Below, piece by piece: positions 723 through 60,403 of a DNA stretch of 64,000 nt. The stretch lies in the IMG/VR virus record IMGVR_UViG_3300030419_007903, positions 12,421 through 76,420 of that record, one strand, 5' to 3'. The stretch comes from a virus. The notes under the pieces are model-generated. The model was not told where the DNA came from. It made no database searches and saw only the letters and a program-made list of their open reading frames with translations. Within the stretch, counting starts at the first letter, position 1. Every line of letters begins with the position of its first letter. Both the position numbers and the translations under genes were made by a program.

Positions 723-1576
723 TATATTAAATTAATTCTTTTTTTAAATTTGTTTATGTAGCTCTCGCTCTTTATAGATTGTAAGTATTCTGACACATAA
801 TTAAAGTGCATTTTTTTATTGTGCTGCAGTGCTAATTCTGCTACAAAATCCCCAAATAACACCCCTGTTCGACTTTCTACGCTTTTAATTAAGGCTGCGC
901 AATCTAAAATGTCATCAAAATTACCGCAATCAAACCAATTTAAACCGTATGAATTGGTTTTTAACACTCTCATCAGTTTATATTGCATATAATGATTTAT
1001 AACGTCAGCAATTTCATATTCCCCTCGCAGACTAGGTTTTAGCTTGCGTATTATGGAAAAAGATTCTTTTGGTAAATGATATAATCCTGTAACAGCTTGA
1101 TCACCACGAGGAGAGGTTGGCTTTTCTATGACGCGCCATAAAGTAGGATCTACCACTCCGTACTGATTTGGATTCGCCACTTGAGCTGTGAGAATCCACG
1201 GTTTTTTATAATTAATGGAGGCCTTCGAAATATCCCCAATAAAAACATTATCACCTAAAAGAGTATAGTAAAAATCTTCTTTCACATATTTTTCGCATAA
1301 ACTAATCGCATGAGCTATCCCTAAAGGTTCATCTTGAGGTATGAAAGTTATTGCAAGATGCGCTGCAGTAAAAGGCTTTATTAAAAATTTTTTATAATAA
1401 GGGATATCTTGCCGTCGAGCTACGATGCACACATGTTCTACCCCTAAGTTAATGAGAGTAGATAAACTATAGAAGAATAAAGGTTTATTATATAGAGGTA
1501 AAAGCTGCTTATTGATAATCTCCGTACAAGGGAAAAGTCTGGTGCCGTGCCCTCCTAGCAATAAAATACCTGTCAT
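722..1576 (-). CDS. rmlA: Glucose-1-phosphate thymidylyltransferase
   Basis: GILLGGHGTRLFP, KQLLPLYNKP, QDEPLGIAHA, EKP, TGLY, RGEYEI, WFDCG motifs. Confidence 0.93.
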   Translation of the reverse strand: MTGILLLGGHGTRLFPCTEIINKQLLPLYNKPLFFYSLSTLINLGVEHVCIVARRQDIPYYKKFLIKPFTAAHLAITFIPQDEPLGIAHAISLCEKYVKEDFYYTLLGDNVFIGDISKASINYKKPWILTAQVANPNQYGVVDPTLWRVIEKPTSPRGDQAVTGLYHLPKESFSIIRKLKPSLRGEYEIADVINHYMQYKLMRVLKTNSYGLNWFDCGNFDDILDCAALIKSVESRTGVLFGDFVAELALQHNKKMHFNYVSEYLQSIKSESYINKFKKRINLI

Positions 1577-1854
1577 GTTACAACATTAGGTTTTTTATGA
1601 GAAATAGGATTTACTTTAAAAACGCATCTACCCATGATGCCATTCTCATTCCCAATCACACCTTCTAAAATCATATCTTCCTTCCCAAAATCAAAATGTT
1701 TAACATCAAATTGAAAAATTTTATCATAAGTTTTAATTGTTAAAACTTGTCTTCCTTCAATCTCCGCCTCAAAATCAACACCTTTAGGTATCATCTTTCG
1801 CCCTTCCCCGTCCGCAGGGAAGTTGTTTGCCTCCATATTTAACTTTACTTTCAT
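1573..1854 (-). CDS. Hypothetical protein
   Basis: 93 aa ORF with 4-nt overlaps to both neighbours. Confidence 0.7.
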   Translation of the reverse strand: MKVKLNMEANNFPADGEGRKMIPKGVDFEAEIEGRQVLTIKTYDKIFQFDVKHFDFGKEDMILEGVIGNENGIMGRCVFKVNPISHKKPNVVT

Positions 1855-2267
1855 TTTCTAAATTCTTTTATATTATGTAACCCTATATTAAATTCTTTGC
1901 ACAGCTTCAACGCAAAATCGTCTATTTCGTATACATCTTCATAGAGAATATGCTCTATGCCGTGAGCTGCAATGGTTTGAACGCAAGCGCTACATGGCAA
2001 TAAAGTACAAGCCAAAGTATGCCCTTCGTCAGGCCTTACATATCTTAAAGCATTTATCTCGGCATGAATGACTCGTTTTCTGCGGTCATCTCTATTAGAC
2101 CAGTCAATTTCGATACCAGAAGGAGCGCCGTTATAACCCACACCGGCAACAGACCAATCATGACGTAAAACGACAGCCCCAACTTGAACATAGGGGTCTT
2201 CACTTCTCAACGATGCCGCCTTGGCCAAAGCTAAAGCATATTCTTCCCATGATAATCTAGTCGCCAC
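1851..2267 (-). CDS. dCMP deaminase (ComEB-like)
   Basis: SEDP..QVGA, GYNG, HAE and PCSAC zinc motifs. Confidence 0.93.
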   Translation of the reverse strand: MATRLSWEEYALALAKAASLRSEDPYVQVGAVVLRHDWSVAGVGYNGAPSGIEIDWSNRDDRRKRVIHAEINALRYVRPDEGHTLACTLLPCSACVQTIAAHGIEHILYEDVYEIDDFALKLCKEFNIGLHNIKEFRK

Positions 2268-2448
2268 TTAAAAAAATTTTTTTAAATCTTAACAAATCGT
2301 TTTTTATCTCTAATGCCATCTTTTTTCTAATAGCATCTTCGTCATCCATAACTTCCGTAGCGCACTCTTCGGAATATTTTTTTAATAATTTTTTTAAATA
2401 AGCGTAAGCCTCTCTCGGCTTAGCTCTTTCAAATTCGTTAATATTCAT
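2257..2448 (-). CDS. Hypothetical protein
   Basis: 63 aa helical ORF tiled between neighbours. Confidence 0.65.
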   Translation of the reverse strand: MNINEFERAKPREAYAYLKKLLKKYSEECATEVMDDEDAIRKKMALEIKNDLLRFKKIFLSGD

Positions 2449-2909
2449 TTTAAAGATTTGATATAATCGTCCTCTAAATGGTGAAATCCTCGTCTTTCAT
2501 AAAAGTCTCCAAGCTTTGCATAGGATGGCACCCCCTTAATCCGACTCATAATAATTTGATAATAATCATTTTTTATGGCAAACTCTTCTACTTGTTTATA
2601 AAGGCGAATGCATTCTAAAGAGCCGCGTTTTTCTTTAGGGCAGAACCACGCCATCTCTTTTAGTATCTTGTTTCCATTCCAAAGCGATGTAGTATTATTC
2701 ACTACAATTCCAGAGCTAGGTGGGGAGCCTGCCCCGTCAGAGGAAGCCCAACCAAGTAAAGTCTGGTTAGAGAATCCTTGGTCAAGCGACCTCTGAACGT
2801 GGGTAGGGTTATACTCACCAAATGTGAGGTGAGCATCGGACTCGTACCAAAACTCTTGCCCTAACTGGACAAAACGTAAAACGTCAGCTCTGGTAGCTTT
2901 GCGAATCAC
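2445..2909 (-). CDS. GNAT family N-acetyltransferase
   Basis: MIRKAT start, WFCPKEKRG (motif A-like), FYERRGF (motif B). Confidence 0.8.
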   Translation of the reverse strand: MIRKATRADVLRFVQLGQEFWYESDAHLTFGEYNPTHVQRSLDQGFSNQTLLGWASSDGAGSPPSSGIVVNNTTSLWNGNKILKEMAWFCPKEKRGSLECIRLYKQVEEFAIKNDYYQIIMSRIKGVPSYAKLGDFYERRGFHHLEDDYIKSLK

Positions 2910-3196
2910 ACCAACAAATCCGGCACCTCGTCAGCACTATCTTGAGTAGCTGCAGTGGTGTTTTGATTTTTAGGAGTATCCTCGTCCAAGCGCCGATTTT
3001 TATAAAGAATATAATCTGGCGCTCTGTCAGAAGTCTTGTTCTTGTTTTTGAAAACAACAAGCTCAACCTTCTCGTCATTAACGGAACAGTGGCCAGACAT
3101 AAAGTCCTGAGTTGTTCCTTGCTTCATCCACAGCGCACCGACTTCTCGTTCGCGCCACTCGTTTTTCTTAGTAGGGGTAGTAGTATTATTACTCAT
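2906..3196 (-). CDS. DUF736-like small protein (possible nucleic-acid binder)
   Basis: EVGALW...FMSG...VFKN..K...APDY pattern and acidic tail. Confidence 0.6.
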   Translation of the reverse strand: MSNNTTTPTKKNEWREREVGALWMKQGTTQDFMSGHCSVNDEKVELVVFKNKNKTSDRAPDYILYKNRRLDEDTPKNQNTTAATQDSADEVPDLLV

Positions 3197-3202
3197 ATAG
3201 GT

Positions 3203-3385
3203 TTATTTAAGGGTCTTTTCGTTTTCTTTTGACTTTAAGACCAAATCTTGTATTAAAATCTTAGTTGATTTATTCACTTTGTCAAGAAATAAAGGTGAAA
3301 TTCTGGAAATTTGTGGTCTTTTTTCTTTAACAATTTGTTCAGTGAATTTTTTACATGCAGCTCTGTTTATAACAGTAGTAATCAT
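3203..3385 (-). CDS. Small basic protein, candidate alpha3-truncated histone fold
   Basis: 60 aa from ATG 3385: INRAACKKF helix, SRIS loop, long helix, terminal KTLK. Confidence 0.6.
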   Translation of the reverse strand: MITTVINRAACKKFTEQIVKEKRPQISRISPLFLDKVNKSTKILIQDLVLKSKENEKTLK

Positions 3386-3465
3386 GTCCAAGGGTTTCCT
3401 TTTCCTTTGTAATGTAATACAACAGTCATATAAATTGACGCTATGATTAAAAAAGCTAAGTACAT
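3382..3465 (-). CDS. 27-aa hydrophobic micropeptide
   Basis: Own translation MYLAFLIIASIYMTVVLHYKGKGNPWT; fills the gap and its TGA overlaps the next ATG (ATGA). Confidence 0.5.
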   Translation of the reverse strand: MYLAFLIIASIYMTVVLHYKGKGNPWT

Positions 3466-3469
3466 AATA

Positions 3470-4012
3470 TTATCTATATTCTTCTTTTAAAAGTCTCCAC
3501 CTGTCTGGATCAAGTGCCCTTTTACCATAATCGATTTCCTTGATGGTGTCAACTACTTTTTCTATACTATCGAAAAAATAATGAGGGGGAAGCATTCCTG
3601 CAAGCCAAAGAGGTACTTTTTGTCTACCTCCTTCAATACTCACAAAGACAGGTTTTTTCATTCTATTAGCGCACATAATTTCTTCTGTCGAACCCCATGA
3701 TCCTACATGAGGTACAATATGAGCAATAATAAAATCAGATCTATCCACTAGATTCAAATCGCTGCGACGAATGGAACTCATATGATTATACACATAATCA
3801 AAACTGCCTTCTTCAAGTTTTTTATTTAAAAAATCTCGCGTATTGAAGTTTTCGTCAATGTCGCTAATAAAAGGTTTATCTAAAGGATCATAAAAAATAA
3901 TGTTAGCCTCTTTTAGCTCCTCTTTAACAAAATCTCTCCAATCTCCCGGTTCTGCATATTGCATATGCCCTACTAAATAACATCTAGTTTTATCTAAAAT
4001 ATGTTTTTTCAT
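3470..4012 (-). CDS. Nucleoside 2-deoxyribosyltransferase / NMP hydrolase-like protein
   Basis: YLVGHM, WR, YDP, DLNLVDRSD, SWGSTEE motifs; start set at MKKH (ATGA overlap). Confidence 0.75.
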   Translation of the reverse strand: MKKHILDKTRCYLVGHMQYAEPGDWRDFVKEELKEANIIFYDPLDKPFISDIDENFNTRDFLNKKLEEGSFDYVYNHMSSIRRSDLNLVDRSDFIIAHIVPHVGSWGSTEEIMCANRMKKPVFVSIEGGRQKVPLWLAGMLPPHYFFDSIEKVVDTIKEIDYGKRALDPDRWRLLKEEYR

Positions 4013-5232
4013 ACATCTGAAATTATACATGCATGTTTAGAGCATAGAGGGATATCTTTCCACGGGTAACTGCCTCCAACGCTTTCATCCCAAATATCAT
4101 CGGGCAATCCCAGCTCTAACAAGCGATTATGAATTCTACGATCATAATTATGTCGAATCATCTCTACAATTCTTTGTATCTCAGGCCGTCTACGATCAGT
4201 GGTATTAGATTGGTCACTGTTGCAATATTGAATATACCCTAATTTAGGAATATGGCAAATGCGAGATTTTAAAAAAGTTCTTACAATTAAATCGTAATCA
4301 TCTCCTACGTGCAACCGAGCATTGTGCCCTCCTACTTCATGATATAACGAAGAACGCCAACACCTTACATGATTAGCTACTCCAACAATATGTCGAATAG
4401 TCTTTTGATTAAGGCGCGGGTAATTCATAGTTAGATAGGTGCGCCCTTTGTAAAGCTCCTCCCTGTAACCCCCGTAACCAAATGCATACTCTCCGTAATC
4501 TACACATTTACCTGTGGCCTCAATAAATTCGGTGCAATCCGTATAACACATTCCAACTTGGGGGTATTTGTTAAAACTTTCTACTACCCATGCAAGACAC
4601 TCATCAGTAAGAACATCATCATGATCCAATTCACATAAAAACTCTCCTTTCCCAAGGGAAAAAGCATTTCTTTTTACTTCACCTATACGTCCACTCCGGC
4701 AATCACTCTTAAATACTTTTATTCGATGATCTGTTTTAGCTAGATCACACAAAAGGCTATAAGTCTCTCCGTCATCATCAGAATCATCATACAAAATCCA
4801 TTCCCAATTTTTATAAGTCTGATTTTGAAGGCTTTCTAGCGGCCTAAAGATTTTATCTTTGCATTTATAGGTAGGGGTAATGACAGAAACTAGAGGTTTT
4901 GAAACATTAGGCTCAAAACACTGCCGCCGATATAAATCGTAGACTTGCTCTCCTATCAACTCGATAGCATCTCCATCATTAAAATTAAGCCACTTCTTCC
5001 GAACTTCAAACGGAGCATAAGATAAAGCTTCATGTGTAGTCCAATCTCCAAAAGTAATATAGGCATTAGGACTAAGACTTTTTTCTATCGCGTCTAAATT
5101 AGCGTCAGTCTCATAGTTGAAAACAGTAATCCCCCTTTCCAACCATTCAGGAAATTCGCGATGACTATAAAGAGCCTCGATTTTTTTTCCAAAAACTACC
5201 GCGCAAATTCTGTCTGATGCATCAAACTCCAT
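4009..5232 (-). CDS. Glycosyltransferase family 2 with N-terminal extra domain
   Basis: LVSVITPTY, SLQNQTY, YDDSDD, ELDHDD, GDDYDL. Confidence 0.9.
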   Translation of the reverse strand: MEFDASDRICAVVFGKKIEALYSHREFPEWLERGITVFNYETDANLDAIEKSLSPNAYITFGDWTTHEALSYAPFEVRKKWLNFNDGDAIELIGEQVYDLYRRQCFEPNVSKPLVSVITPTYKCKDKIFRPLESLQNQTYKNWEWILYDDSDDDGETYSLLCDLAKTDHRIKVFKSDCRSGRIGEVKRNAFSLGKGEFLCELDHDDVLTDECLAWVVESFNKYPQVGMCYTDCTEFIEATGKCVDYGEYAFGYGGYREELYKGRTYLTMNYPRLNQKTIRHIVGVANHVRCWRSSLYHEVGGHNARLHVGDDYDLIVRTFLKSRICHIPKLGYIQYCNSDQSNTTDRRRPEIQRIVEMIRHNYDRRIHNRLLELGLPDDIWDESVGGSYPWKDIPLCSKHACIISDV

Positions 5233-5969
5233 TAAAGGATTTCTAACAGTTTCATTATTTCTTTTTTAGGAATATCTCTCCAAGATTCCCAGTCAGCAGC
5301 GTCTTCGTTTTTATACTGGCCGCTCTTCCACAGGCCCCGCAAAATATCTTTGAAAGTAGCAAAGTCTTCTTCTCCAAGTCCAATCTTTTGCATGAGTATA
5401 TTCAAAGGGGTAAACTTTTCTTTATTGTCTGCCTGAATCTTAGCTGGAGGCGTTCCGTTAGAGGTGTCAATTTCATCGGCTCCCACAATATGAACATTTA
5501 AAAAATTGCGCACACAGCGAACAAAAGCTCTATTTGCTGCGATTGTTTCTAAAAACTTTTGAGCGAAACTGCTGGTGTTATGAACTGTAGCATTAGCTAG
5601 ATCTTCAAACGATGTACTTGGTGGAAGAAAATCTGATTCTTCTTTCGGATTTTCAAAATTGGGAATCCAATTTATTTCACACTTTACTGAAACATGATCT
5701 ATTTCGCATTTAATAACTTCATAATGGACTCTATTAAAGCCACGCAGCTTTGCTAATTCTTTAATGCCAGATAGCTTAATTAAAAGTTGATTATCCGCAA
5801 GCCCCTCTATTGATTGAGGCATTGGTTGGTTCCTCATTTCAAACCAACCTTTATTTGGGTAAAGGTGCTCTGCGGCTATCATAGCGCGCCAGTTTACTGT
5901 ACCATCTTCGTTATATTCGTAATTTACCCCTTCGAGGAGCCCAAGTTCGTTTCGTTTGTATTGTGCCAT
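5232..5969 (-). CDS. Putative single-strand annealing protein (Rad52/Sak/ERF-like)
   Basis: IKLSGIKELA...TIAANRAFVRCVRNFL...GADEID resembles the core helix of phage annealases; followed by a linker and small C-terminal domain. Confidence 0.55.
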   Translation of the reverse strand: MAQYKRNELGLLEGVNYEYNEDGTVNWRAMIAAEHLYPNKGWFEMRNQPMPQSIEGLADNQLLIKLSGIKELAKLRGFNRVHYEVIKCEIDHVSVKCEINWIPNFENPKEESDFLPPSTSFEDLANATVHNTSSFAQKFLETIAANRAFVRCVRNFLNVHIVGADEIDTSNGTPPAKIQADNKEKFTPLNILMQKIGLGEEDFATFKDILRGLWKSGQYKNEDAADWESWRDIPKKEIMKLLEIL

Positions 5970-7168
5970 TCTATTTTTTGCCTTGCCGATCCATTAATTA
6001 ATCTATAATGATCTAACTCCTTCCAGAAGTCGTCAGTATCATAAATGAATTCAGGCGCACCTGTCAACTCTTTTTTTGCTTTTTGTGCCTCGCGACATGA
6101 ATATTTTTTTCCTTGGCTAAGCAATATTTTGCCTGACAAAAACATAGTATTATTAGAATCTAATATAAGAGGGCGGTCAGGAAAAATACGGTTATCGGTA
6201 TCTTTCTTAAGATCTTCTTTTGACTTAAAAATACTTTTATTGACCTCAAAATCAAAAAATTTGAAACGATAATCATTTATCTTGTCTAAGTCTTCGCAAA
6301 AAATTTGCACATTATTTCCTGTTGCTTTAGCTTGCCTCAAATAGTCCTCAGTAAAATGCTCATTAATATTAATTGTTAGTTGAGCTATGCTCTTCTTAAA
6401 ATATTTTAATAAATTTAAGTTGATAGGCTTATCCGTAAGAATGTTGATTTTACGATTTTGCAGCCAATGTATAGCCATTTGCTCATTAAATTCATAATCC
6501 ATTCTGAGATTAAGTGCGCGGCCTTCCATGAAGCCTTTCTGTGGCACAAAGTCAGGAATAACCTCTACTACTCTCGTTGGGTATAAATCTCCAATATGAA
6601 AGGTCTCATGCTCTACTCTATCTTCGAGCCCTAATTTTTTAAAGATCTCATTAGCAATTTTCTCTGGCTCAATAAAGTTAATAGTTTTAGGACTCTCTCC
6701 TACTCCGTAAGCGGGTAGATTACCGTCTCGATGGCTTTCTAGGCCTAAATGTGAACTGCTCCATAAGGGAGAAGTACATTGGGAAGGGTAAGGGGAATAT
6801 AATCCAATACTAGGGACATTCAAAGCTGATGCAAAATAATTAGACATATTATCACACCCAACAATTAACTTGCTATGCTTTATCAAATAGCTTTCTTGCT
6901 TTTTAAATAAATTAAGAAAAGGTTCTGCTCCTTCTATAACGCTTTGTGCGTCTTTGGCGAAGTTGTATATTATAATATTATGTTTATCAAGAACAGGCTC
7001 GATATAAGTCATTACATCTTCAAAAAGATTATAAATATTACTTTCATATTTGTTTCGGTCATCGATAATTATATAATCTTGTTCCGGTAACGGAAAATAA
7101 GAAGTACTTACAAATGGGTCTCGAATTTTAACCCCGCAATTTGATGCGTATTTTTCTAATATATTCAT
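5924..7168 (-). CDS. GT9/heptosyltransferase-like protein with C-terminal extension
   Basis: LIKHSKLIVGCDN...ASALNVPSIGLY motif typical of GT9. Confidence 0.6.
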   Translation of the reverse strand: MNILEKYASNCGVKIRDPFVSTSYFPLPEQDYIIIDDRNKYESNIYNLFEDVMTYIEPVLDKHNIIIYNFAKDAQSVIEGAEPFLNLFKKQESYLIKHSKLIVGCDNMSNYFASALNVPSIGLYSPYPSQCTSPLWSSSHLGLESHRDGNLPAYGVGESPKTINFIEPEKIANEIFKKLGLEDRVEHETFHIGDLYPTRVVEVIPDFVPQKGFMEGRALNLRMDYEFNEQMAIHWLQNRKINILTDKPINLNLLKYFKKSIAQLTININEHFTEDYLRQAKATGNNVQIFCEDLDKINDYRFKFFDFEVNKSIFKSKEDLKKDTDNRIFPDRPLILDSNNTMFLSGKILLSQGKKYSCREAQKAKKELTGAPEFIYDTDDFWKELDHYRLINGSARQKIEWHNTNETNLGSSKG

Positions 7169-9075
7169 GCTAATTCAAATTCTAGTTTATCTTTTCCATT
7201 GTGCGTATAATTAAGTACCCGTTTAGTCTCTAAGAAAGGGAGGAAAGCTATATCAAACAACCCTTCATTGTCAGCTCTGCCTTCAAAATAAAAACAATCA
7301 TCCATCTCCTCTTGAAATTCACATAATTTATGTATATGAGGGCATTGGTCAACCAAGTCAAAATATTGAGGTCGTGTGAAAAAATAAATATCGCAATTCT
7401 TATAGAGCTGTTTAAGCCCCGCTAAAACACTAGTACTCATAAAGACATCTTCAGCATGCTCAGGCATTGCGTAGGCAATTCGCATAGCGTCTCTATCGAA
7501 ATCAATTTGCTCTTTTAAAGGTTTTTTCAAAAGGTTTTGATTTTCTTTTTTTGCGGTCTGCTTGAAATAAGCCTCTACTTCTTTTCGTGTACGTCCTTTG
7601 GAATTTAACTCTCCCATCCAATATTTATGCCCTTGATCATTGGCGTCAACATCCATCTTTAATATATTTTTGTAAATATCTATTAGCCATTCTGAATTAG
7701 GAAGGCCTTCTTTACTTATATAATCTGGGTTTCTTTTTTCTACCTTGGTCAAATCTACATTATCCCAATCAATTAAAGGCATTTCATCAAAGCTTTTTTC
7801 AAAAAAGGAACCAATGGTTTCAGTTGAATAATTGTCAATTACAAACTGTCTTGCTTGAGACCCTAAGGCTCGGCGATCTTCGCCGCTCATATTATAAACT
7901 TTTGTTAATTGGTCGCAAATGGAAGAAGAAGAGGTGGAGGCTTTAATAAATTGGGTGCCGGGTTCACGGTACTCAGCCCACTCTAAAGGAAACCCTCCGC
8001 TTTCAGGGGTGCAGCTATCTTCTCCACAGCTATAATTAGTAACTAAGGTTATTAATTCAGTTAATTTAGCTTCTTGAATAGGTATTTCTTGGCCGCCGCT
8101 CGTAAATGGGTGACAGTATACATCTAATAAATTATAAATTTCATTGAGTTGAACTTCACTTACGCCATGTTTAATATTGGTTGTATGCGATACGTTCTTC
8201 ATACCGCAATTACCACAGTCTATGCCATTGCCTTCAAAAGGTTTAATTTCATATTGATTGCATGCGGGGCAAAAATAAGTAGTTAATACTAAATCATTAT
8301 CTATTTTCTTTTCTTCTAATAATCGTTTAATATCCCACCCTTCGCCCCAGTGGGTATGTAGCAGCAACTTGGCTTTAGATTCAGGATTTTTACTGATAAA
8401 AGTTTTAAAACCGTCTAATAAATTAGGAACGCTTTTACGGAGCTGATTCCTAAAAACAAACCCTATAATAAAATTATCTTCAACCTTGTATTTTTTTCTA
8501 AGATCTTCTCGCTGGGGGTGTTTAAAAAAATGAGTGCTTTCAACAATACCCCGGACTGTTTTAACGTGATCAAATCCCATTTTTTTCATTTCCTTTTCAG
8601 CAAAAGCGGCCCATACAAAATAATTTTTAATAGAAGGCGCTGCCTCTATAGACTCGGGCAATAAAGGAAGGCTATCTAAAGTAGTGTGAATAATACAATT
8701 AATTTTATTCCACCAGCTTCGTTTAGTGAAACCCGAAAATGCCCAAATATCCTCAATCCCTAAATAAATATCTGGCTTCTCTTCTTTAATAATATCATCT
8801 ATAAGTTCGTGCCCATAACCTGCAAGGCGCATTCGTCCTTGATCTTTTTGTATTTTTTTAAGGATTTGATGATCAGTTGGTAAGGTTCCAATGCATTTCC
8901 ATGGTAAATTCTCCAACTCCTCTGAAAACTTATTTTTAGCGTTAGCAAGTTCTACAATTTCATATTTTCCGGTTTTATAAAGGTATTTAAGCAAGTTCTT
9001 TTTATGCTTTCCAAATCCTGTGAAAGCCTTGCAAAAATTACTATGTACTAAGATCTTCTTTTTTCTTTCTGACAT
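7165..9075 (-). CDS. GT4-like glycosyltransferase with zinc-ribbon insert and C-terminal GT9-like domain
   Basis: TGFG, RNQLRK, YNLLDVYCHPFTSGGQEIPIQEAK; CPAC..CGNC insert; start set at MSERKKK. Confidence 0.8.
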   Translation of the reverse strand: MSERKKKILVHSNFCKAFTGFGKHKKNLLKYLYKTGKYEIVELANAKNKFSEELENLPWKCIGTLPTDHQILKKIQKDQGRMRLAGYGHELIDDIIKEEKPDIYLGIEDIWAFSGFTKRSWWNKINCIIHTTLDSLPLLPESIEAAPSIKNYFVWAAFAEKEMKKMGFDHVKTVRGIVESTHFFKHPQREDLRKKYKVEDNFIIGFVFRNQLRKSVPNLLDGFKTFISKNPESKAKLLLHTHWGEGWDIKRLLEEKKIDNDLVLTTYFCPACNQYEIKPFEGNGIDCGNCGMKNVSHTTNIKHGVSEVQLNEIYNLLDVYCHPFTSGGQEIPIQEAKLTELITLVTNYSCGEDSCTPESGGFPLEWAEYREPGTQFIKASTSSSSICDQLTKVYNMSGEDRRALGSQARQFVIDNYSTETIGSFFEKSFDEMPLIDWDNVDLTKVEKRNPDYISKEGLPNSEWLIDIYKNILKMDVDANDQGHKYWMGELNSKGRTRKEVEAYFKQTAKKENQNLLKKPLKEQIDFDRDAMRIAYAMPEHAEDVFMSTSVLAGLKQLYKNCDIYFFTRPQYFDLVDQCPHIHKLCEFQEEMDDCFYFEGRADNEGLFDIAFLPFLETKRVLNYTHNGKDKLEFELA

Positions 9076-9093
9076 ATAAAAGTTGAGGATAAT

Positions 9094-9129
9094 AAAAAAA
9101 CGCACCAACAATTCAAGTCGTTGGTGCGT
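9094..9129 (-). terminator. Intrinsic terminator after tubulin gene
   Basis: ACGCACCAAC-N10-GTTGGTGCGT hairpin followed by a T run on the minus strand. Confidence 0.75.
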
Positions 9130-9150: not shown

Positions 9151-10356
9151 TTAAGCAAATAATTGATCGGGAGCTTCAATTCCACCTATAATAGTATAGA
9201 CAACTAATCCTTTTTTAGAAGTATGGTAGATGCCCCGATGAACGGTGGAACCCTCTCCCAACAGTCGCGTTAACTGTTCAAATCCATGCTCTAGGCTTTC
9301 TTGAGGAGTATTTTCTAAAGTGTCTTTATCTCCAATGACAACACATGCAGCAAATTTTCCAGTATTAACATCAATATTGGCTAAAATATTCTTCTTTAAA
9401 TTGTCCCGTACCGCATGGCTGATATCCGTTTCTTCAATGGTATCGCCGGAAGGCCTTACCGGAACAGCTCCGAAAGAAATAATTCCAGATGACATTACTG
9501 TATCTAAGTCAGCCTTATCAAAAGCAGTATATTCAGAATCTTGCGCCGCAATCTTATTAAATAAATGAAATAGGGAGCAAATACTAGTATTTGCTGTATT
9601 CCAAAATTTATTCACAGAAAGTTTCGGATAAAGATGTTTGATCCTCTCATTATCTAAAATAATTAAAGGTGATAAAGTGCCGTTAGTTGAATATTTAATT
9701 AAAGCGTCTGCTGTTTCCTTCGCGTTATTTTTAACGCGGGAACCTTCGGATTTAGTAGGTAAAGCTAGCACGGCCCCTACTTTTGCTTCATAATCAGACT
9801 GCTCTACGCCAAAAGTCTGACATAAATCGTGGCACACATCCACTACAATAGGGCCTCCGCCAGCCCCCGTACCTCCCCCAGCACCGATACATACTAGGAT
9901 GCGGTCAATGCTGCTGCTAAAAGCTTTCTTAAGAAAATCTAGAATATCTTCTTTGTGTTCCTCAAATATTTTTTGAGCTACTTTTCTATCTTTTCCTGCT
10001 CCAGCACCTCCGATGAGCAATTTATTTTTTTCGGGTAATGCTATAGGTTTTAAATCTTGAGCTGCCGTATTGATAACAGCTACTCTTCTGTAACCTAATT
10101 TCCAAAAAGTTTCCGCTAATCGGGAACCTCCTTGGCCCACTCCCACAACAGCAAATCTATAAGCACTATCAAATTCATCTTCAATAACAACTTCTTGCGT
10201 ATCTTCGGCAGAAGGAAGAGGAATGTCTGGTATATCTACCGCCAGTTCATCAACTTCCTCAATTAAATCGGCCTTGATCTCTTCTTTATTCTCAGAGGCC
10301 TCTACTTGATTGTTTTCTGGTTCTTCCATTTTATATTCAGCTAAGGTTGGCATCAT
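9151..10356 (-). CDS. Tubulin/FtsZ family GTPase (PhuZ/TubZ-like) with acidic N-terminal extension
   Basis: GVGQGG, INT, GAGKD, GGGTGAGG signature, LDN, FDKADL T7-like loop. Confidence 0.92.
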   Translation of the reverse strand: MMPTLAEYKMEEPENNQVEASENKEEIKADLIEEVDELAVDIPDIPLPSAEDTQEVVIEDEFDSAYRFAVVGVGQGGSRLAETFWKLGYRRVAVINTAAQDLKPIALPEKNKLLIGGAGAGKDRKVAQKIFEEHKEDILDFLKKAFSSSIDRILVCIGAGGGTGAGGGPIVVDVCHDLCQTFGVEQSDYEAKVGAVLALPTKSEGSRVKNNAKETADALIKYSTNGTLSPLIILDNERIKHLYPKLSVNKFWNTANTSICSLFHLFNKIAAQDSEYTAFDKADLDTVMSSGIISFGAVPVRPSGDTIEETDISHAVRDNLKKNILANIDVNTGKFAACVVIGDKDTLENTPQESLEHGFEQLTRLLGEGSTVHRGIYHTSKKGLVVYTIIGGIEAPDQLFA

Positions 10357-10361
10357 TTCTA

Positions 10362-10961
10362 TCAAAAAGGAGCGTCATCCTCTTCAATATTTACACGTGT
10401 TTCAGACTTTTTTTCTTTATTTTGAGTAGCTGGAGTAGACTTTGTTCCTCCATCGGCTCTATATTCCTCTTCTTGTTGAGCTTTTACGTCAAAAACTACC
10501 TGAAAATATCTCTCAATTAATTTTTTTAAAACCTCAGTTTCTCCCGGTTCTAAAGCAATTCTATAATTCTGATTGCCATTACGTGTCACTGCGAGTCCAA
10601 AAGCGGGAGATTTGTAAGTTTGATCGACTCCATCTTTCCCTTTGATTTTTCTTGGCTTGTCCCACGGTGCAAAACGAATAGTAGTAGTGTTATCATTATA
10701 ATTATGGTATGAATTCCATGGAATGCGAGAACTAATAGACGATAAAATTTCTCCTAGCTCAAAGTCGTTCAACTTAAAACTTACATTTTTGTCATCCGCA
10801 TCTTTATTTTTAATAAAACTGCCGGTCTTCTTTTTATCATCCCAGCTATGTTGTTGAATAGCATTGACATAAAAAACAGGCAGTTTGCCTTGCGTAGAAA
10901 CACGAAAACTGAAAGCACATCCAGTATTTTTAGAATTGGGCTTATAAATAGCTACGTTCAT
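10362..10961 (-). CDS. Putative ssDNA-binding protein (Whirly/PC4-like) with SSB-type acidic tail
   Basis: Two beta-sheet plus helix repeats (FKLNDFELGEIL; IALEPGETEVL); ends in EEDDAPF. Confidence 0.65.
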   Translation of the reverse strand: MNVAIYKPNSKNTGCAFSFRVSTQGKLPVFYVNAIQQHSWDDKKKTGSFIKNKDADDKNVSFKLNDFELGEILSSISSRIPWNSYHNYNDNTTTIRFAPWDKPRKIKGKDGVDQTYKSPAFGLAVTRNGNQNYRIALEPGETEVLKKLIERYFQVVFDVKAQQEEEYRADGGTKSTPATQNKEKKSETRVNIEEDDAPF

Positions 10962-10998
10962 TATGTCGGATAATAATGTTTTAAGGCAAAAAATCCAT

Positions 10999-11029
10999 AA
11001 AAAAATGCCCCCTTTAGAGGGGGCATTTT
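10999..11029. terminator. Intrinsic terminator (possibly bidirectional)
   Basis: AAAATGCCCCCT-TTAG-AGGGGGCATTTT perfect hairpin. Confidence 0.85.
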
Positions 11030-11377: not shown

Positions 11378-11385
11378 AGATGCAG

Positions 11386-11413
11386 ATAATAAAGACTTAA
11401 GTTAAAATGTCAA
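11386..11413 (-). promoter_or_regulatory. Sigma70-type promoter
   Basis: TTGACA-16-TATTAT, 8 nt before ATG 11377. Confidence 0.7.
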
Positions 11414-11617
11414 CTAAAAAATTCCCAATATATCTCCTTGCCTAACATCATCCCAACTTGCAGTACCTTTGTGTTTTTTTTGTTGCTTAAATTGGCTATT
11501 GCAAACGGCTGCTCTTTGCTTGGGATCTGAAAATTCAGAGTTCATAATATCATCTCCCATGCAACGGCTCATGAATTCCTCTCTAGATTCGTCAGACTTT
11601 TTAGTGGGAAGAGGCAT
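11414..11617 (-). CDS. Small phage protein (MPLP..SRCM..QRAAVC type)
   Basis: Two-Cys motif that I recognise from phage hypothetical and head-associated proteins. Confidence 0.7.
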   Translation of the reverse strand: MPLPTKKSDESREEFMSRCMGDDIMNSEFSDPKQRAAVCNSQFKQQKKHKGTASWDDVRQGDILGIF

Positions 11618-11619
11618 GA

Positions 11620-13083
11620 TTAGCTGCTAGCTCCTTCCGCTGTAGAACTGTCGTCCCCCGAACTATACTGCCAATATTTCATAGGAGAAAATTTAGCTAA
11701 ATATGCAGATGCAAGTTGCTTGGCCGTAATAGGCTTTAAGAAAAAATTTATAGGAACACCACAGTCACCAGCGATTGCTTTTTGAACATAGTCATCAAAA
11801 GCTATCATAAGGCTATTTGTGTCGATTATTTTATTATTAGCATTATCAATTTTACCAAGATCAGAAACTACGCCAGAAACATAACTATTATTAAGCTCCA
11901 TGAAGCTTTGCCCTGTTCGCGCTTTAGATGCTTTAGAGGCAGTATTGTTTACGCCATCGTCAGTTGCTCCTTGTATTGCAGCTAGTTGCTTCATTACATC
12001 GGTGGCATGAGGTTGAAGAGTGGAAACTGTAGTTCTGATTTCTCCGGATTTAATAGTGGGAATAATGCCCATTGTGATTACAGACGCATGAGCTTGCACG
12101 TTAGAAGAAGATAAAAGCTCTTTAATCGAATTAGCAAATGAACCATCAACTCCAAATTTACCTTCCGAAGATGCAAGCCAACAATTTTCTTCAAAAGATG
12201 CTTCTAAATCAAAAGAAGATGAAGAGCTTGATTGATGGGACTGAGATTTTTCTGTTCTGACTAAATGCACCATTCCTACAAAAGAAGAGCCATGCGTCTG
12301 GCCTGAGAGTAAGAACATCTTAGCTTTTTCATCAGCTAAAGCTTTCGTAAGGCCTTCGTCAGTTGTGTCAATTTCTGATCCTTTATTATAAACATTCCAT
12401 GCCCGAATAGCTTTCTCTGGATCTATAATAAACGGAGCAAACATATCTGCCGCCTTATGAGTGCAATTTGCAGTAATTACTAAAGTGCCCTGAAGTTCAT
12501 GTGCTGATGATTGCGCTAATGCCGCGCTTTTAGCTGAAGCTCCTGCTTTAGATCCATACGTAGGCCCAAAGACAGATGATACTTGACCTGAGACATATGT
12601 CGCAATCGCATTGGAATGAGATTCTGTTCCATCGTTCTCTGATTCGTATCTAAAATATTGAGCATCCATCACCATAGAATCAGAGGATAAGTCCATCTTC
12701 TTAATGGCGGACTTGTTCCAATCAATGGGAGATTCAACTTCTTCGGAAATTATACTACTTGCAGCTTCTTTAGCTTTTTGAATGTTGACTTGAGATGAAG
12801 CGGTGATAGCAGCATATTCTACGGCAGCTTTAGCCATCTCTGATTTAGTCTTATCAACTTGCGCAGTTAATTTAGCCATATCTTTCGCGTCCACCTGCAT
12901 TTGAATCATTTCCTGTACCGTCATGTCAAGGCTTCGTTTGGAAAGAATCAACGAATTCAACTTCTCTTGTGCGATATTAACGGGTTTTTGAGCTGCGTCT
13001 ACGGCCTCAAGGGCTTGTATTTTCTTAGGATCGACAATATTCCCTAATACTAATGAGGGGTCGAAAGGTATTTGTGTTGGCAT
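11620..13083 (-). CDS. 487-aa protein with N-terminal coiled coil; candidate MACPF/CDC-like fold
   Basis: Start set at MPTQIPFDPSLVLGNIV; LSGQTHGSSFVG, Ser-rich amphipathic segment, GVPINFFLKPI. Confidence 0.55.
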   Translation of the reverse strand: MPTQIPFDPSLVLGNIVDPKKIQALEAVDAAQKPVNIAQEKLNSLILSKRSLDMTVQEMIQMQVDAKDMAKLTAQVDKTKSEMAKAAVEYAAITASSQVNIQKAKEAASSIISEEVESPIDWNKSAIKKMDLSSDSMVMDAQYFRYESENDGTESHSNAIATYVSGQVSSVFGPTYGSKAGASAKSAALAQSSAHELQGTLVITANCTHKAADMFAPFIIDPEKAIRAWNVYNKGSEIDTTDEGLTKALADEKAKMFLLSGQTHGSSFVGMVHLVRTEKSQSHQSSSSSSFDLEASFEENCWLASSEGKFGVDGSFANSIKELLSSSNVQAHASVITMGIIPTIKSGEIRTTVSTLQPHATDVMKQLAAIQGATDDGVNNTASKASKARTGQSFMELNNSYVSGVVSDLGKIDNANNKIIDTNSLMIAFDDYVQKAIAGDCGVPINFFLKPITAKQLASAYLAKFSPMKYWQYSSGDDSSTAEGASS

Positions 13084-13091
13084 AATATTAC

Positions 13092-13103
13092 TATATATTA
13101 CAC
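13092..13103 (-). promoter_or_regulatory. GTGTA-N3-TATA phage promoter motif
   Basis: GTGTAATATATA 8 nt before ATG 13083; recurs at four other gene starts. Confidence 0.65.
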
Positions 13104-13120
13104 ATAATACATTTAATTCC

Positions 13121-13149
13121 AAAAAAAAATGCACCAAATGGTGCATTTT
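13121..13149 (-). terminator. Intrinsic terminator
   Basis: AAAATGCACC-ATTT-GGTGCATTTT plus T run on the minus strand. Confidence 0.8.
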
Positions 13150-13171
13150 CATAAGATTTTAACCTGCTAGA

Positions 13172-13843: not shown

Positions 13844-16285
13844 TTAAAAATCCACACAAACTTTATCAGATTTTTTGTCGTATTTTACAGAGAATTCTGT
13901 CTTCTGAGTATTAGCCACTATCTCTCGAGAAATAACATCTGACACCTCTCTTTGAATAATTCTTTTAATCGAGCGAGCACCAAATTCTTTATCGCTTACT
14001 TTTGTAAAAATAAAATTAGATAAGTTTCTGGAGAAACAAAGGGTAAGTCCATTATTACCCGCGCTTTCCTTCAGGTTTTTTAATTCATAATTAATTATAG
14101 ATCTTAAATTTGCATCAGATAATTTATTGAAAAATAAAACATCATCAAAACGATTGATTAATTCTAAAGGCAATAGTTTTTTAACTTCCTTAAAAGCGTC
14201 TTCTACATTTGACTCTTGCAAGTTTTCAGACCCAAATCCTAAAGATTGAGTTTTAGATAATTGAGCTGATCCTATATTTCCCGTAACTATAATAATTGAG
14301 TTATGAAAGCGACCTACGCGGCCATGCGAATCAGTCAGTCTACCTTCATCTAGAATCTGCAATAACATCTGATGAACTTTTGGGTGAGCTTTTTCTATTT
14401 CGTCAAACAAGATAACACAATGAGGATTTTTACACACCTTCTCTACTAGTAATCCTCCATTCTCGTGACCTATATAGCCCGGATTAGAGCCAGTTAACTT
14501 GGAAACACTAGATTCTTCAGAAAATTCAGACATGTCTAAGTGCATAAAGCTCTCTTTGCTCCCAAAAAAAGTACTGGCCAGCATTTTAGCTAAAAAAGTC
14601 TTGCCTACTCCAGTGGTGCCCAAAAATAAAAACGAACCAATAGGTCTATTTCCGTCTCGCAATCCACTTTTATGCCTCATTAAGCACTTAGAAATAGTTT
14701 CAACAGGCTTCTCTTGACCTACAATAACTTTTTTTAATTTTTTTTCTAAATATAGATACTTTTCTGTTTCTGATTTAAGAAACTCATCTAAAGGAATATT
14801 AGTTTTAGTAGAAAGTACTTCAAATAAATGATTACGAGTCAACTTATATTTGTTGGAGGTTATTTTATTCTGCCATGAAATTAACGCTTTTTTCAAAGCC
14901 TCAAAAGTCGTGGATTGATCGTCATTCATGTTTGTAAAAGAATTGCCAATTTTAGAGAAAGATTCCACTAATGAATTCTCAAGGTCTGCTATTTTTTTTG
15001 GTTTAACAATTTTTTTGACTTTGACGTGACTACATGCCAAGTCCATTAAATCAATTGCCTTGTCCGGAAATTGTGAATCAAGCATATAGCGATCTGAATA
15101 ATCGACTATGTCATTAAGTATTTCTTCAGAAATAGCAACTGAATGATATTCTTCATAAATAGTTTTTTTTCGTAAAAGAATCTCTAAAGTAGATTTTTTA
15201 CTAGGCTCATTAATAACCAAAGATTGGAATCTTCTTTGAAGAGCTTTATCTTTTGTGAATTTTTGCCGATATTCTTTGAATGTAGTAGCCCCTACAACTG
15301 TTATTTCTCCATTAGATAAGGCGGGCTTGAGTATATTAGCTGCATCTAAACCTCCCTCTGCGTCTCCAGCCCCGATTAAAGTATGAATTTCATCTATAAA
15401 TAATATAACAGAATCATGCTTTGCTTCTTCAATTACCTGTTTTATGCGGGCCTCAAACTCTCCACGGTATTTAGTACCGGCAAGCATAGAGCTTAAATTC
15501 AGTTCATAAAAAATTTTGTCGTTAAGAAAAAATGAAGATTTATTGCGGACAATGTTTTGAACTAATGCTTCTACCACAGCAGTCTTGCCCACTCCAGCTT
15601 CTCCGATAATAATAGCGTTATTCTTCTTTCTCCTGTTTAAAATATCCTCAAGCTTGCTAACTTCTTCTTCTCTGCCGTAAACGGGATCAAGTTTATTTTC
15701 TAAAGCTTTTTGAGTCATATTTGTTCCCAACTTATCTAGCAGCGCAAAATGCTGACGCTGACTAGAAGAGCTAATCATATCTTGAACAGTCCCTTCATTC
15801 ATAGAGCTCGAAATATCATTGCTATCTTCAGCATCACACAAATAATCTAAAACTTTTGTAGTGACAAAGTTCATATCAACACCAAGAAAGACTAATATCT
15901 CGTCCGGAATTAATGCTATATCTTTAAATATAGCCATAAAAATATGCTCAGCGCTCACCCATGAATGAGACAAATCTTGCGCCAACTGAGTCGCGTTTTT
16001 TAACACTTCTTTTAACTCGGCAGAAAGCTTGAATTCATCGGGTTTTAATTTCTCTGGCTGCTCCACCAAAACAGTTGCGTATAGGTGATGTCGGAAATTA
16101 TTGAGGTCCAGACCGGCCTCAACTAAAACTTCAATGCATCGACTTTTCTTCAATTCAAAGAATGCTGCAAATAAATGTGCCACACCTACATCTGTGTAGT
16201 TGAGTTCTTGCGCTATCTTCTTACAAAGCTGCAACAGCTTTTGCGAGCGAGGGGTAAAATTAATATCTTGGTTATCTAGCGTCAT
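13844..16285 (-). CDS. clpC: ClpA/ClpC-type AAA+ unfoldase
   Basis: Clp N-terminal repeats, GEAGVGKT/FIDEIH, GTTGVGKT/LFDEIEKAH, SLGF ClpP-docking loop. Confidence 0.92.
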   Translation of the reverse strand: MTLDNQDINFTPRSQKLLQLCKKIAQELNYTDVGVAHLFAAFFELKKSRCIEVLVEAGLDLNNFRHHLYATVLVEQPEKLKPDEFKLSAELKEVLKNATQLAQDLSHSWVSAEHIFMAIFKDIALIPDEILVFLGVDMNFVTTKVLDYLCDAEDSNDISSSMNEGTVQDMISSSSQRQHFALLDKLGTNMTQKALENKLDPVYGREEEVSKLEDILNRRKKNNAIIIGEAGVGKTAVVEALVQNIVRNKSSFFLNDKIFYELNLSSMLAGTKYRGEFEARIKQVIEEAKHDSVILFIDEIHTLIGAGDAEGGLDAANILKPALSNGEITVVGATTFKEYRQKFTKDKALQRRFQSLVINEPSKKSTLEILLRKKTIYEEYHSVAISEEILNDIVDYSDRYMLDSQFPDKAIDLMDLACSHVKVKKIVKPKKIADLENSLVESFSKIGNSFTNMNDDQSTTFEALKKALISWQNKITSNKYKLTRNHLFEVLSTKTNIPLDEFLKSETEKYLYLEKKLKKVIVGQEKPVETISKCLMRHKSGLRDGNRPIGSFLFLGTTGVGKTFLAKMLASTFFGSKESFMHLDMSEFSEESSVSKLTGSNPGYIGHENGGLLVEKVCKNPHCVILFDEIEKAHPKVHQMLLQILDEGRLTDSHGRVGRFHNSIIIVTGNIGSAQLSKTQSLGFGSENLQESNVEDAFKEVKKLLPLELINRFDDVLFFNKLSDANLRSIINYELKNLKESAGNNGLTLCFSRNLSNFIFTKVSDKEFGARSIKRIIQREVSDVISREIVANTQKTEFSVKYDKKSDKVCVDF

Positions 16286-30232: not shown

Positions 30233-30323
30233 TTGTTTTTTCTTTTAAAGGTTTGACTTTAGGTTTGCATTCGTCTTTCTTCTTAATTATATAATAAATT
30301 TTAGATTTAGGACAAAATTTCAT
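30210..30323 (-). CDS. 37-aa Lys-rich micropeptide
   Basis: Own translation MKFCPKSKIYYIIKKKDECKPKVKPLKEKTNESAKIK; directly follows a GTGTA motif. Confidence 0.45.
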   Translation of the reverse strand: MKFCPKSKIYYIIKKKDECKPKVKPLKEKTNESAKIK

Positions 30324-30329
30324 ACTCAA

Positions 30330-30341
30330 TATACTTTACAC
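30330..30341 (-). promoter_or_regulatory. GTGTA-N3-TATA phage promoter motif
   Basis: GTGTAAAGTATA, identical to the copy upstream of nrdA. Confidence 0.65.
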
Positions 30342-30371
30342 CAACTTAAGCGCGCGTAGAAATTAAAAAAA

Positions 30372-58193: not shown

Positions 58194-58762
58194 TGACGCA
58201 TCTAATAGGACTTTGCGGTTTTGCCCGTTCGGGCAAGAACAGCTTTGCTGACTTCTTAAGAGGAAACTCAGATGCTTGCAAAAATATTTCTTTTGCTTAT
58301 GCTCTGAGAAAAGAGCTTGACTCCTTTCTTTTAAAAAGGTTAAATATCTCTGCCTTTACCGAAGACCCTAAGGAAAAAGAGATCGTAAGGCCTCTTTTAG
58401 TATGCTGGGGGACTGAAATTATGAGGCAAAAGATAGACCCTGACTACTGGGTAAAATCTATTAAAAAAACTGTAGAAATTAATAGAAAAAATAATATATG
58501 CTCTATTATCACTGACGTTCGTTTTAGCAATGAGCTAAAATGGATAAAAGAAGAAGGAGGAGTATCAATTTTTGTAGAAAGAGAAGGGTTTGGGCCTTGT
58601 AATAAGGATGAACTAGAATTTACAAAGCCCCTAAAAAAAGACTGCAACTTAATATTTAAATGGAAAAATTTACAAAATTTCAAAGAAGAAGGGAAGGCTT
58701 TAGTGCGCAACTTCGCTAGCGCCAACAACTTATGTCCGATCAATCCACTGACAAAGAATTAA
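58193..58762 (+). CDS. Deoxynucleoside monophosphate kinase
   Basis: GFARSGK, FA..L, R.LL..WGTE..R, ITDVRF.NE. Confidence 0.9.
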   Translation: MTHLIGLCGFARSGKNSFADFLRGNSDACKNISFAYALRKELDSFLLKRLNISAFTEDPKEKEIVRPLLVCWGTEIMRQKIDPDYWVKSIKKTVEINRKNNICSIITDVRFSNELKWIKEEGGVSIFVEREGFGPCNKDELEFTKPLKKDCNLIFKWKNLQNFKEEGKALVRNFASANNLCPINPLTKN

Positions 58763-59334
58763 CTGATAATCTAAAACTAGATGTAAATACGGAGGAATCG
58801 CTTCGGGAGTTGGTAAATCGCCATTCTGGCATTTTTCTGGACATTGTCACTAGCTATGTCCCAAAAAATTCAGCTAGCGGCTCGAGAGACGATCTCATAA
58901 ACGATCTAGAGTATTACGTATATAACGCAGGTCTTAAATATGACCATACTAAAAACACTAAATTTAGCACCTTTCTAGGTAATGAGGCAAAATGGGCGTG
59001 TTTAAATCAATATAATAAAAATAAAAAATACTTAATCACTGACACCGATGAAAGCCGTTTTACTTACGAAAATAACCTTATGGAGCAAGAAAAACCTTTT
59101 GTCAATGAATGGACTTTAGATAAAATTTTCAATATTATTGACCATCACCCAGATGAAAGAGTACAACAAATATTTCACTTGAGATACATCGACCCTCAAT
59201 ATAATAAGCTAACCCCTTGGAAAAAAGTTAGCAAAGAACTTAATATGAGTATTCAAGGATGTATAAACATACATAACTCAGCAATAAAAGTTATAAGAAA
59301 AGAATTAAAAAACAATTATGAATTTGATATTTAA
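58732..59334 (+). CDS. Phage sigma70-family factor (regions 2 and 4)
   Basis: LV.RH...DDL...KYD.TK.TKFSTFL; IF.LRY...W..VSKELNMS HTH. Confidence 0.85.
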   Translation: MSDQSTDKELTDNLKLDVNTEESLRELVNRHSGIFLDIVTSYVPKNSASGSRDDLINDLEYYVYNAGLKYDHTKNTKFSTFLGNEAKWACLNQYNKNKKYLITDTDESRFTYENNLMEQEKPFVNEWTLDKIFNIIDHHPDERVQQIFHLRYIDPQYNKLTPWKKVSKELNMSIQGCINIHNSAIKVIRKELKNNYEFDI

Positions 59335-60403
59335 CGCGCCTATCAATAACCTTTCCTTCGGAAACGTCTCCGTCAATCTCTTGCGCGAACTATACAAGAG
59401 AAAAGCAAAATTATCTCTTTTTACAACTGGAGAGATGTCACTAGAAGCATACAACGACCTAGATGAAGACTTTAAAAATTGGCTAAACAACTCAATTAAT
59501 TACAGATATCACAATCTCTCAAAAGAAACGCCTTCATTAAGATTATGGCATTTAAATGGAGGCGAAACAAGAATTTCACCTAAACAGTATTTGCTTACAT
59601 TCTACGAGCTTGATCAGCCTACTTTTGTAGAAAAGAAAATTGTTGATATGCAAGAGAAGGTTTTCCTAAGCAACCCCGAAGCTGTAGACGCATTTACCAA
59701 ATTAGGCTGTGAGAATGTAAAATTCGTACCTATGGGATTTGACCCTAGTTTTAAAATAGTCGAAGCTGCATCTAAAATAGTAGAAGGAAAAATTCATTTT
59801 GTGTTAATGGGTAAATTCGAAAAACGAAAGCACACTAAAGAAATAATTCAAGCATGGATCAAGAAGTACGGGAATAATGACAAATATTTGCTTAGCTGCT
59901 GCGTAGTAAATCCTTTCATAAAGCATGAGCAAATGAATGCACTGCTTTCAGATGTTTTAGATGGAAAACATTATAGCAATGTCAATTTTTTACCACACCT
60001 TAAAACAAATGCTGAAGTCAACCATCTCCTGAATTCTGCCGACATAGACCTAACAGGCTTAAGTGGTGCAGAGGGCTGGAACCTACCATCCTTTAACGCT
60101 ACAGCTTTAGGAAAGTGGTCACTAGTTTATAATCATAGCGCCCACAAAGCTTGGGCAACAGAAGAGAATTCCATACTTCTAGAGCCAGAAGAAAAAGAAC
60201 CGGCAGCAGATGGGTTATTCTTTGCTGAAACAGGTAACTTCAACATAGGAAGTATTCGCGGTTTCAACGAAGAAAAAGCAATATCAGCTATGGAGAAAGC
60301 CGAAGAAAAGGTAGGGTCGGTCAACACAGAAGGAGTTAAGCTGCAAGAAAAATTCTCATATAAAAATACATTAGATGCAATACTAGAACATATCAATTTA
60401 TAA
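59318..60403 (+). CDS. GT4-like glycosyltransferase
   Basis: GKFEKRK, SGAEGWNLP. Confidence 0.85.
   Translation: MNLIFNAPINNLSFGNVSVNLLRELYKRKAKLSLFTTGEMSLEAYNDLDEDFKNWLNNSINYRYHNLSKETPSLRLWHLNGGETRISPKQYLLTFYELDQPTFVEKKIVDMQEKVFLSNPEAVDAFTKLGCENVKFVPMGFDPSFKIVEAASKIVEGKIHFVLMGKFEKRKHTKEIIQAWIKKYGNNDKYLLSCCVVNPFIKHEQMNALLSDVLDGKHYSNVNFLPHLKTNAEVNHLLNSADIDLTGLSGAEGWNLPSFNATALGKWSLVYNHSAHKAWATEENSILLEPEEKEPAADGLFFAETGNFNIGSIRGFNEEKAISAMEKAEEKVGSVNTEGVKLQEKFSYKNTLDAILEHINL

Follow-up and report, generated by a model that had tools for sequence, protein, structure and literature searches.

A Whirly-family protein with a bacterial SSB-type tip in marine phages: a candidate hub on single-stranded DNA

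What does a Whirly-like protein that ends in the acidic tip of a bacterial single-stranded DNA-binding protein (SSB) do in a marine phage, directly beside a tubulin gene? The question is posed by a gene in IMG/VR record IMGVR_UViG_3300030419_007903 (76,420 bp, CheckV completeness about 53%), of which we analysed bases 12421–76420; this stretch of 64,000 nucleotides is called the window, and its numbering is used throughout. The contig has a G+C content of about 36%, nearly all of its genes lie on the minus strand, and near-identical DNA is present in metagenomes of marine, seawater and estuary origin that were sampled in many studies. When the DnaE encoded in the window was compared with cultured phages, only relatives of less than 33% identity were found, and thus no cultured relative of this virus. 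A preliminary description of the DNA had proposed a phage SSB without an OB fold, which might link DNA to the tubulin filament as TubR does for TubZ; our search of the literature found no description of a phage SSB of Whirly type with an SSB tip.

The gene occupies positions 10362..10961 (minus strand) and encodes 199 amino acids followed by a stop codon, as judged from the open reading frame, the homologues, an AlphaFold2 model and a family profile. The reading frame is as first described, and the motifs listed for it are all present and in the same order: IYKP (residues 5–8), WD (40–41), FKLNDFELGEI (62–72), YH (85–86), IRFAP (95–99), FGLAV (121–125), IALEPGETEVL (134–144) and the terminal DDAPF (195–199). 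The start Met is common to 36 homologues. More than 240 homologues were found, all unnamed and all in marine metagenomes, with the closest being 72–89% identical, and an exhaustive profile search yields 682 representative clusters (50% identity, E up to 1e-3). Because of these homologues and clusters, and of a conserved D/E-x-P-F end, the reading frame and its motifs can be taken to be beyond chance.

Directly downstream lies a gene for a GTPase of the tubulin/FtsZ family (9151..10356, minus strand; PF00091, E 1.5e-14). The TGA stop codon of the Whirly gene is at 10362–10364 and the tubulin ATG at 10356, about 6 nt further on. At this junction (10353–10365, minus strand) the ORF program begins the tubulin at a TTG overlapping the Whirly stop codon; the likelier start is an ATG ATG pair (MMPTLAEYK...) 6–9 nt beyond that codon. 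The two terminators that were said to bracket the pair are both there, as minus-strand hairpins followed by T-runs, and make the pair a two-gene unit in this genome. The upstream one (10995..11029), which closes the preceding unit, has a perfect 12-bp stem with arms at 11002–11013 and 11018–11029, and the one 3' of the tubulin gene (9090..9129) has a 12-pair stem at 9100–9129 with six G-C pairs. Just past the upstream terminator is a weak sigma-70-like promoter match, TTGCCT-18-CATAAT (10960..10989, minus strand), which is a match to consensus only. From this arrangement, the Whirly and tubulin genes probably share a promoter and a terminator in the window's clade.

A 42-nt repeat, D1, occurs at 10969–11010 and 11385–11426, before the Whirly gene and before the upstream gene for a 106-aa protein, the two copies being 74% identical. 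Both copies overlap matches to a sigma-70-like promoter, TTGCCT-18-CATAAT in the first and TTGACA-16-TATTAT in the second, and D1 may represent a shared class of promoter.

Searched on its own, the window protein finds only chance-level matches in Pfam and no match to the Whirly family PF08536 even at E up to 10; it does not reach that family's curated cut-off of 23 bits. PHROGs returns only a weak Lsr2-like match (E 0.065), a sequence search of the PDB only a designed repeat protein, and a profile of 37 sequences no PDB match. With a family profile of 75 sequences, the top six PDB matches are the six plant Whirly chains (E values of 1.1e-5 for StWhy2, 2.9e-5 for AtWHY2, 3.2e-5 for p24, 1.1e-3 for WHY3 and 1.4e-3 for WHY1), and the next match is at 0.9. 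PF08536 is itself matched by 13 of the 75 wider family members (best E 5.9e-6), among which no other Pfam family recurs, and by 2 of 37 close relatives; the ESM Atlas offers a further lead, with PF08536 in 13% of the members of one neighbouring cluster. In the 75-sequence profile, the most conserved residues of the family, E68, H86 and E141, align on the Whirly motifs TE(I/V)G, FFH and AEF. Because the family profile finds the plant Whirlies and members of the family match PF08536, we conclude that these proteins are true but distant kin of plant Whirly, beyond a likeness of shape. Since the window protein itself lies below PF08536, it belongs to a sister family, tied to the Whirlies of the PDB via intermediates and the profile match. 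The label has already reached databases in one form: UniProt automatically names at least one uncultured-phage protein, the top structural match in BFVD, "Whirly transcription factor".

The plant motifs that the preliminary description had cited hold up for the greater part when set against PDB sequences. SLSxTEIG, FFH, FNLSV and IPVTKAEFAVL align as it proposed, and LKVEP falls in the IRFAP stretch, but YDW lies near residues 54–56 and not at W40-D41; the proposed pair of YKG and IYKP is in a part that the alignment does not reach. One Whirly hallmark is absent, the KGKAAL motif, which in higher plants binds ssDNA and also serves assembly of the 24-mer (PMC9070903). Residues 5–17 of the window protein read IYKPNSKNTGCAF, and the family consensus is YKPNSKNTG; Whirly-like proteins of algae are likewise without KGKAAL (PMC9070903).

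The fold agrees with the kinship. An AlphaFold2 model built from 37 homologues (pLDDT 87.4, pTM 0.79) has a beta-rich body, a helix at residues 66–78, a long helix at 139–169 and an unstructured end at 178–195 with pLDDT below 50. All 11 top-ranked Foldseek matches in the PDB are Whirly or MRP proteins (E 1e-4 to 6e-4, probability 1.0), as the preliminary description had anticipated, and no OB fold is predicted. VIA-align gives Z 15.1 for MRP1/2 (rmsd 3.1, 131 residues), 14.8 for PBF-2 p24 (137 residues) and 14.6 for StWhy2 (rmsd 2.6, 132 residues), the rmsd values of the three spanning 2.6–3.2, with a drop thereafter to SsgA (Z 8.0) and Pur-alpha (Z 6.9). Whirly, MRP and Pur-alpha have been grouped as PC4-like proteins (PMC7549692), and the model shows the features of type I of that fold (Whirly/MRP/PUR), namely tandem beta-beta-beta-beta-alpha repeats forming two sheets and two helices.

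Four copies of residues 1–176 are predicted to form a ring. The ipSAE is 0.92, whereas the best of three controls reaches 0.29; partner pLDDT does not fall below 86, and 93% or more of the contacts recur between runs. At the predicted interface, helix 66–83 packs against helix 138–168, so that each copy touches two neighbours via different faces, and the invariant residues E68, G70, G140 and E141 all lie there. The protein is thus predicted to be a ring-shaped (whirligig) homotetramer. Because tetramers of both Whirly and MRP have been solved, the success of this prediction may partly reflect likeness to known assemblies.

In its overall layout the protein resembles a bacterial SSB. The Whirly core, residues 1–170 (10452..10961, minus strand), comprises the beta-rich body and both helices and is the part predicted to tetramerise and to bind nucleic acid. 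Residues 1–137 have a pI of 9.7 and include 17 aromatic residues, and K7, K11, W40, F49, K58, R79, H86, W100, K102 and F121 are conserved candidates for contact with nucleic acid. The core is followed by a predicted disordered linker of about 20 residues (171–190; 10392..10451, minus strand), of low pLDDT and varying among homologues in both length and sequence, and then by the acidic tip NIEEDDAPF (residues 191–199; 10365..10391, minus strand), which is of the bacterial SSB C-terminal type. The tail that had been likened to that of bacterial SSB is therefore present, with its disordered linker and its acidic Pro-Phe end, and the family as a whole conserves it. Of 37 aligned close homologues, 34 retain the D/E-x-P-F end, and of 80 loci (the best 80 of 241 IMG/VR loci), 75 retain a terminal Phe. 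Among 75 diverse members, 43 have acidic residues and then a final Phe or Trp, and several of these carry the exact DDDIPF of E. coli SSB. The core is of another kind altogether, having no match to PF00436 and a predicted fold that is Whirly and not OB. A few Whirly proteins (loci L012, L052 and L068/L069) are without the acidic aromatic tail; these lie about 2 kb from a canonical SSB that ends in EFEF, not IPF.

Does such a protein replace the canonical SSB or work beside it? In most relatives it stands beside one. All five complete relatives encode an OB-fold SSB (PF00436, E 1e-10 to 1e-24), the relatives' SSBs ending in EVPF, DIPF or EFEF, and the slot for this gene, between a sigma-like and a glycosyltransferase-like gene, is filled in 77 of the 79 related loci in which both flanking genes are present. 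In the window the slot is empty (58732..60403, plus strand): the sigma-like gene (58732–59334) and the gene for a 361-aa glycosyltransferase-like protein (59318–60403) abut, leaving no room between them (tblastn, whole record). It is likewise empty in the closest relative that covers it (G006), and a search with PF00436 gave no match in the 76-kb record, which is about 53% complete, or in four fragments of the clade. In a genome of another lineage (G010, L123/L081; 108,942 bp, 79% complete) the slot is empty as well, PF00436 finds no match and tubulin is absent, and the Whirly protein has a very acidic tail, ...DEDDDEEVPF. The last ten residues of the Whirly protein include 4, 7 and 7 acidic residues in the three empty-slot genomes against 1–4 (mean 2.3) in 22 SSB-bearing genomes, which, with three genomes from two independent lineages, is a hint only.

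These observations qualify the first description of the protein as a non-OB-fold phage SSB. The non-OB, Whirly fold stands, and the name may hold for the clade with the empty SSB slot, but it is too simple for the family, most of whose relatives also carry an OB-fold SSB. Since they do, the family-wide Whirly protein would be a second hub with the same type of tip, and with the slot vacant in this genome, the main SSB here may be the Whirly protein. That it is the sole SSB of the window's clade we put forward tentatively, judging the chances to be somewhat less than even; about half of the genome is unseen and the missing part could hold a canonical SSB, so a take-over is not proven.

We propose, with moderate confidence and on the basis of the models and sequence comparisons above, that the phage Whirly-family protein serves replication and recombination as a recruiting hub that binds ssDNA. 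The ring homotetramer would coat ssDNA on its basic, aromatic-rich beta surfaces, and the floppy linker would present the acidic ...EEDDAPF tip. Through this tip, phage or host enzymes for replication, recombination and repair would be brought in, much as bacterial SSB does with its ...DDDIPF tip. Across the family the protein would act alongside the OB-fold SSB, while in the window's clade it may have taken over the main SSB role.

Gene order speaks on both sides of this proposal. The Whirly gene lies downstream of, and on the same strand as, genes for ClpB-like, DnaE, DEDDh exonuclease, PHP, PD-(D/E)XK nuclease, DnaB and RecA-like proteins. The genes that follow it are for glycosyltransferase and sugar-nucleotide functions and not for replication, which counts against a replication hub. 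In the interval from the replication block to the Whirly gene, the window also encodes a 510-aa protein (11620–13152, minus strand) with no Pfam or PHROG match, which is absent from the related loci examined, the closest included. The ClpB-like gene (13844–16285, minus strand) encodes a full-length double-AAA+ protein of ClpB/ClpA type (813 aa) and sits directly downstream of, and overlapping, the DnaE gene; several relatives (L002, L003, L040 and L064) preserve this pairing of DnaE with Clp. Genes for a GT1-like protein, two GT2 proteins, an NTP-transferase and a UDP-galactopyranose mutase occupy 1–9111 and 29168–32547 (minus strand), and the relatives' canonical SSB gene is itself flanked by a glycosyltransferase-like gene.

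Other features also weigh against an ssDNA hub: KGKAAL is missing, the window protein has no PF08536 match, and its best structural match is a tie with the RNA binders MRP1/2. It could be an RNA-binding protein of Whirly fold that acts on the stability, translation or localisation of phage transcripts, as MRP1/2 or ChmC might suggest. MRP1/2 is nominally the top structural match (Z 15.1), and Chimalliviridae phages that carry ChmC also encode tubulin. ChmC of PhiPA3, the one studied phage protein of Whirly fold, is a homotetramer that prefers RNA, with a higher affinity for ssRNA than for ssDNA, and its disordered C-terminal region ends acidic (PMC11077065). At the level of sequence, however, the matches of the family are the ssDNA-binding Whirlies of plants and not MRP. 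A tblastn search of 50,697 phage records (E up to 1e-3) returned no match to the Whirly protein, which is therefore not a detectable relative of ChmC. The short ...D-x-P-F tail is shared with the OB-fold SSBs of relatives, unlike the long N/G-rich region of ChmC, and tubulin is missing from most carriers of the gene. We therefore consider an RNA-binding role improbable.

An alternative that keeps DNA as the ligand is a nucleoid-organising or transcription-related protein, in which the acidic tail would be autoinhibitory, or a decoy peptide that soaks up SSB-interacting enzymes of the host. Among plant proteins, WHIRLY1 is described as an architect of nucleoids and PBF-2 as a transcription factor (PMC9070903), and bacterial Whirly-related proteins mainly compact the nucleoid (PMC11077065). 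The presence of an OB-fold SSB in most relatives fits as well, as the Whirly protein is then not needed as the only SSB. Against this, a recruiting hub is the simpler explanation of the core-linker-tip layout and of a tip held in common with the resident SSB, and the most acidic tails are those of the empty-slot genomes, albeit only three genomes of two lineages. We thus give this alternative little credence and continue to prefer the ssDNA-binding recruiting hub.

The tubulin neighbour had suggested a third function, that of a TubR-like adaptor which would bind phage DNA and tether it to the filament of the adjacent tubulin. The two genes do lie close together, 6–12 nt apart between two terminators in the clade, and four distinct contigs besides the window keep the pairing. 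A search that started from the tubulin found six loci, all from the window's small clade, with a gap to the Whirly gene of about 12 nt wherever a contig has both. The wider synteny is at odds with a conserved partnership. A scan of IMG/VR gave 241 related loci, and in 75 of the best 80 kept from these the Whirly gene abuts a gene for a 648-aa glycosyltransferase-like protein with no tubulin at the junction; beyond that gene, those 75 loci have the same genes for 414-aa and 245-aa proteins as follow tubulin in the window. Tubulin lies between the Whirly and glycosyltransferase genes in only four of the best 80 of the 241, the four loci closest to the window, and is nowhere in the genome in five complete relatives that have the Whirly gene (184–211 kb, CheckV 100%).

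Because it is restricted to the window's clade and missing from the five complete relatives, the tubulin gene is, on these comparisons of gene order, best seen as a recent clade-specific insertion at an existing Whirly-glycosyltransferase junction, and not as a conserved partner. The ancestral job of the Whirly protein therefore predates tubulin and is independent of it. Between members of the clade, tubulin is conserved at 69–85% and the Whirly protein at 54–56%. TubR is a small winged-helix protein that binds dsDNA and reads centromere repeats, and so differs from the phage protein in both fold and substrate; the phage protein resembles TubR of the TubZRC system only in the adjacency of its gene to that of a tubulin, having instead a Whirly fold, no repeats nearby and a pairing confined to one small clade. 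With no iteron or centromere-like (TubC-like) array found near the pair, and with the tail already explained by the SSB-type tips in tubulin-free genomes, a TubR-like adaptor is very unlikely. The idea can largely be set aside, which spares effort on a less likely course, although a clade-specific interaction between the Whirly protein and tubulin may exist.

Whirly proteins have been described in review as plant-specific (PMC9070903). With 682 clusters at 50% identity in a viral sister family, Whirly is not confined to plants, and the phage family may bear on the origin of the organellar Whirlies. The core-linker-acidic-tip design of bacterial SSB, when set on an unrelated fold, is a natural experiment that asks whether the tip alone is enough for the SSB partner network. 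A genome with an empty SSB slot, in which the Whirly protein may work alone, is a possible test case. The parts can be joined into a single account, in which the Whirly protein of one marine-phage clade would have fully replaced the OB-fold SSB as the hub of the replisome while keeping the tip, the plant Whirlies would be a eukaryotic offshoot of the phage family, and the clade's tubulin might be wired to the Whirly protein. As a whole we regard this as unlikely. Were full replacement true, the SSB tip and its partner network could move between unrelated DNA-binding folds. Organelles use other phage-derived replication proteins, and in plant organelles Whirly sits beside SSB; if its origin did lie in phages, plant Whirly would have been acquired in the same manner as those proteins.

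Of the known systems with which the phage protein can be compared, trypanosome MRP1/MRP2 (PDB 2gia, 2gje) is the best structural match and has a tetrameric assembly of Whirly type. It differs as a heterotetramer that binds guide RNA, with no SSB-type tail and no sequence-level signal to the phage protein. The nearest published case is ChmC (PhiPA3 gp61, Chimalliviridae), a tetrameric RNA binder with a Whirly fold from jumbo phages that form a nucleus (PMC11077065). Here the likeness lies in a phage-encoded Whirly fold, a homotetramer, a disordered C-terminal region and the presence of tubulin in the same phages, and the differences in the beta-beta-beta-alpha repeats, the long N/G-rich, condensate-forming tail and the RNA preference of ChmC (PMC11077065). 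In the phage protein described here the tip is instead short and of SSB type, and its relatives are mostly in phages without tubulin.

Bacterial SSB (PF00436) has the same layout of core, disordered linker and acidic P-F tip, and a likely tetramer in common with the phage protein. The core fold differs, being OB in SSB and Whirly in the phage protein, for which we infer the function of the tip. The plant organellar Whirlies (StWhy1, which is PBF-2 p24, StWhy2 and AtWHY1/2/3; PF08536; PDB 1l3a, 3n1h, 4koo/4kop/4koq) differ in that the phage protein has neither KGKAAL nor a transit peptide, gives no PF08536 match alone, and continues from one long C-terminal helix into a disordered linker and the ...DDAPF tip. 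They have the same fold (Z 14.6–14.8) and share with the phage family the motifs TE(I/V)G, FFH, F-x-LSV and (K/T)AEF-x-V(L/M), and their tetramer is matched by the homotetramer predicted for the phage protein. Both the plant Whirlies and the phage family stand beside an OB-fold SSB and a RecA-type recombinase within one genetic system.
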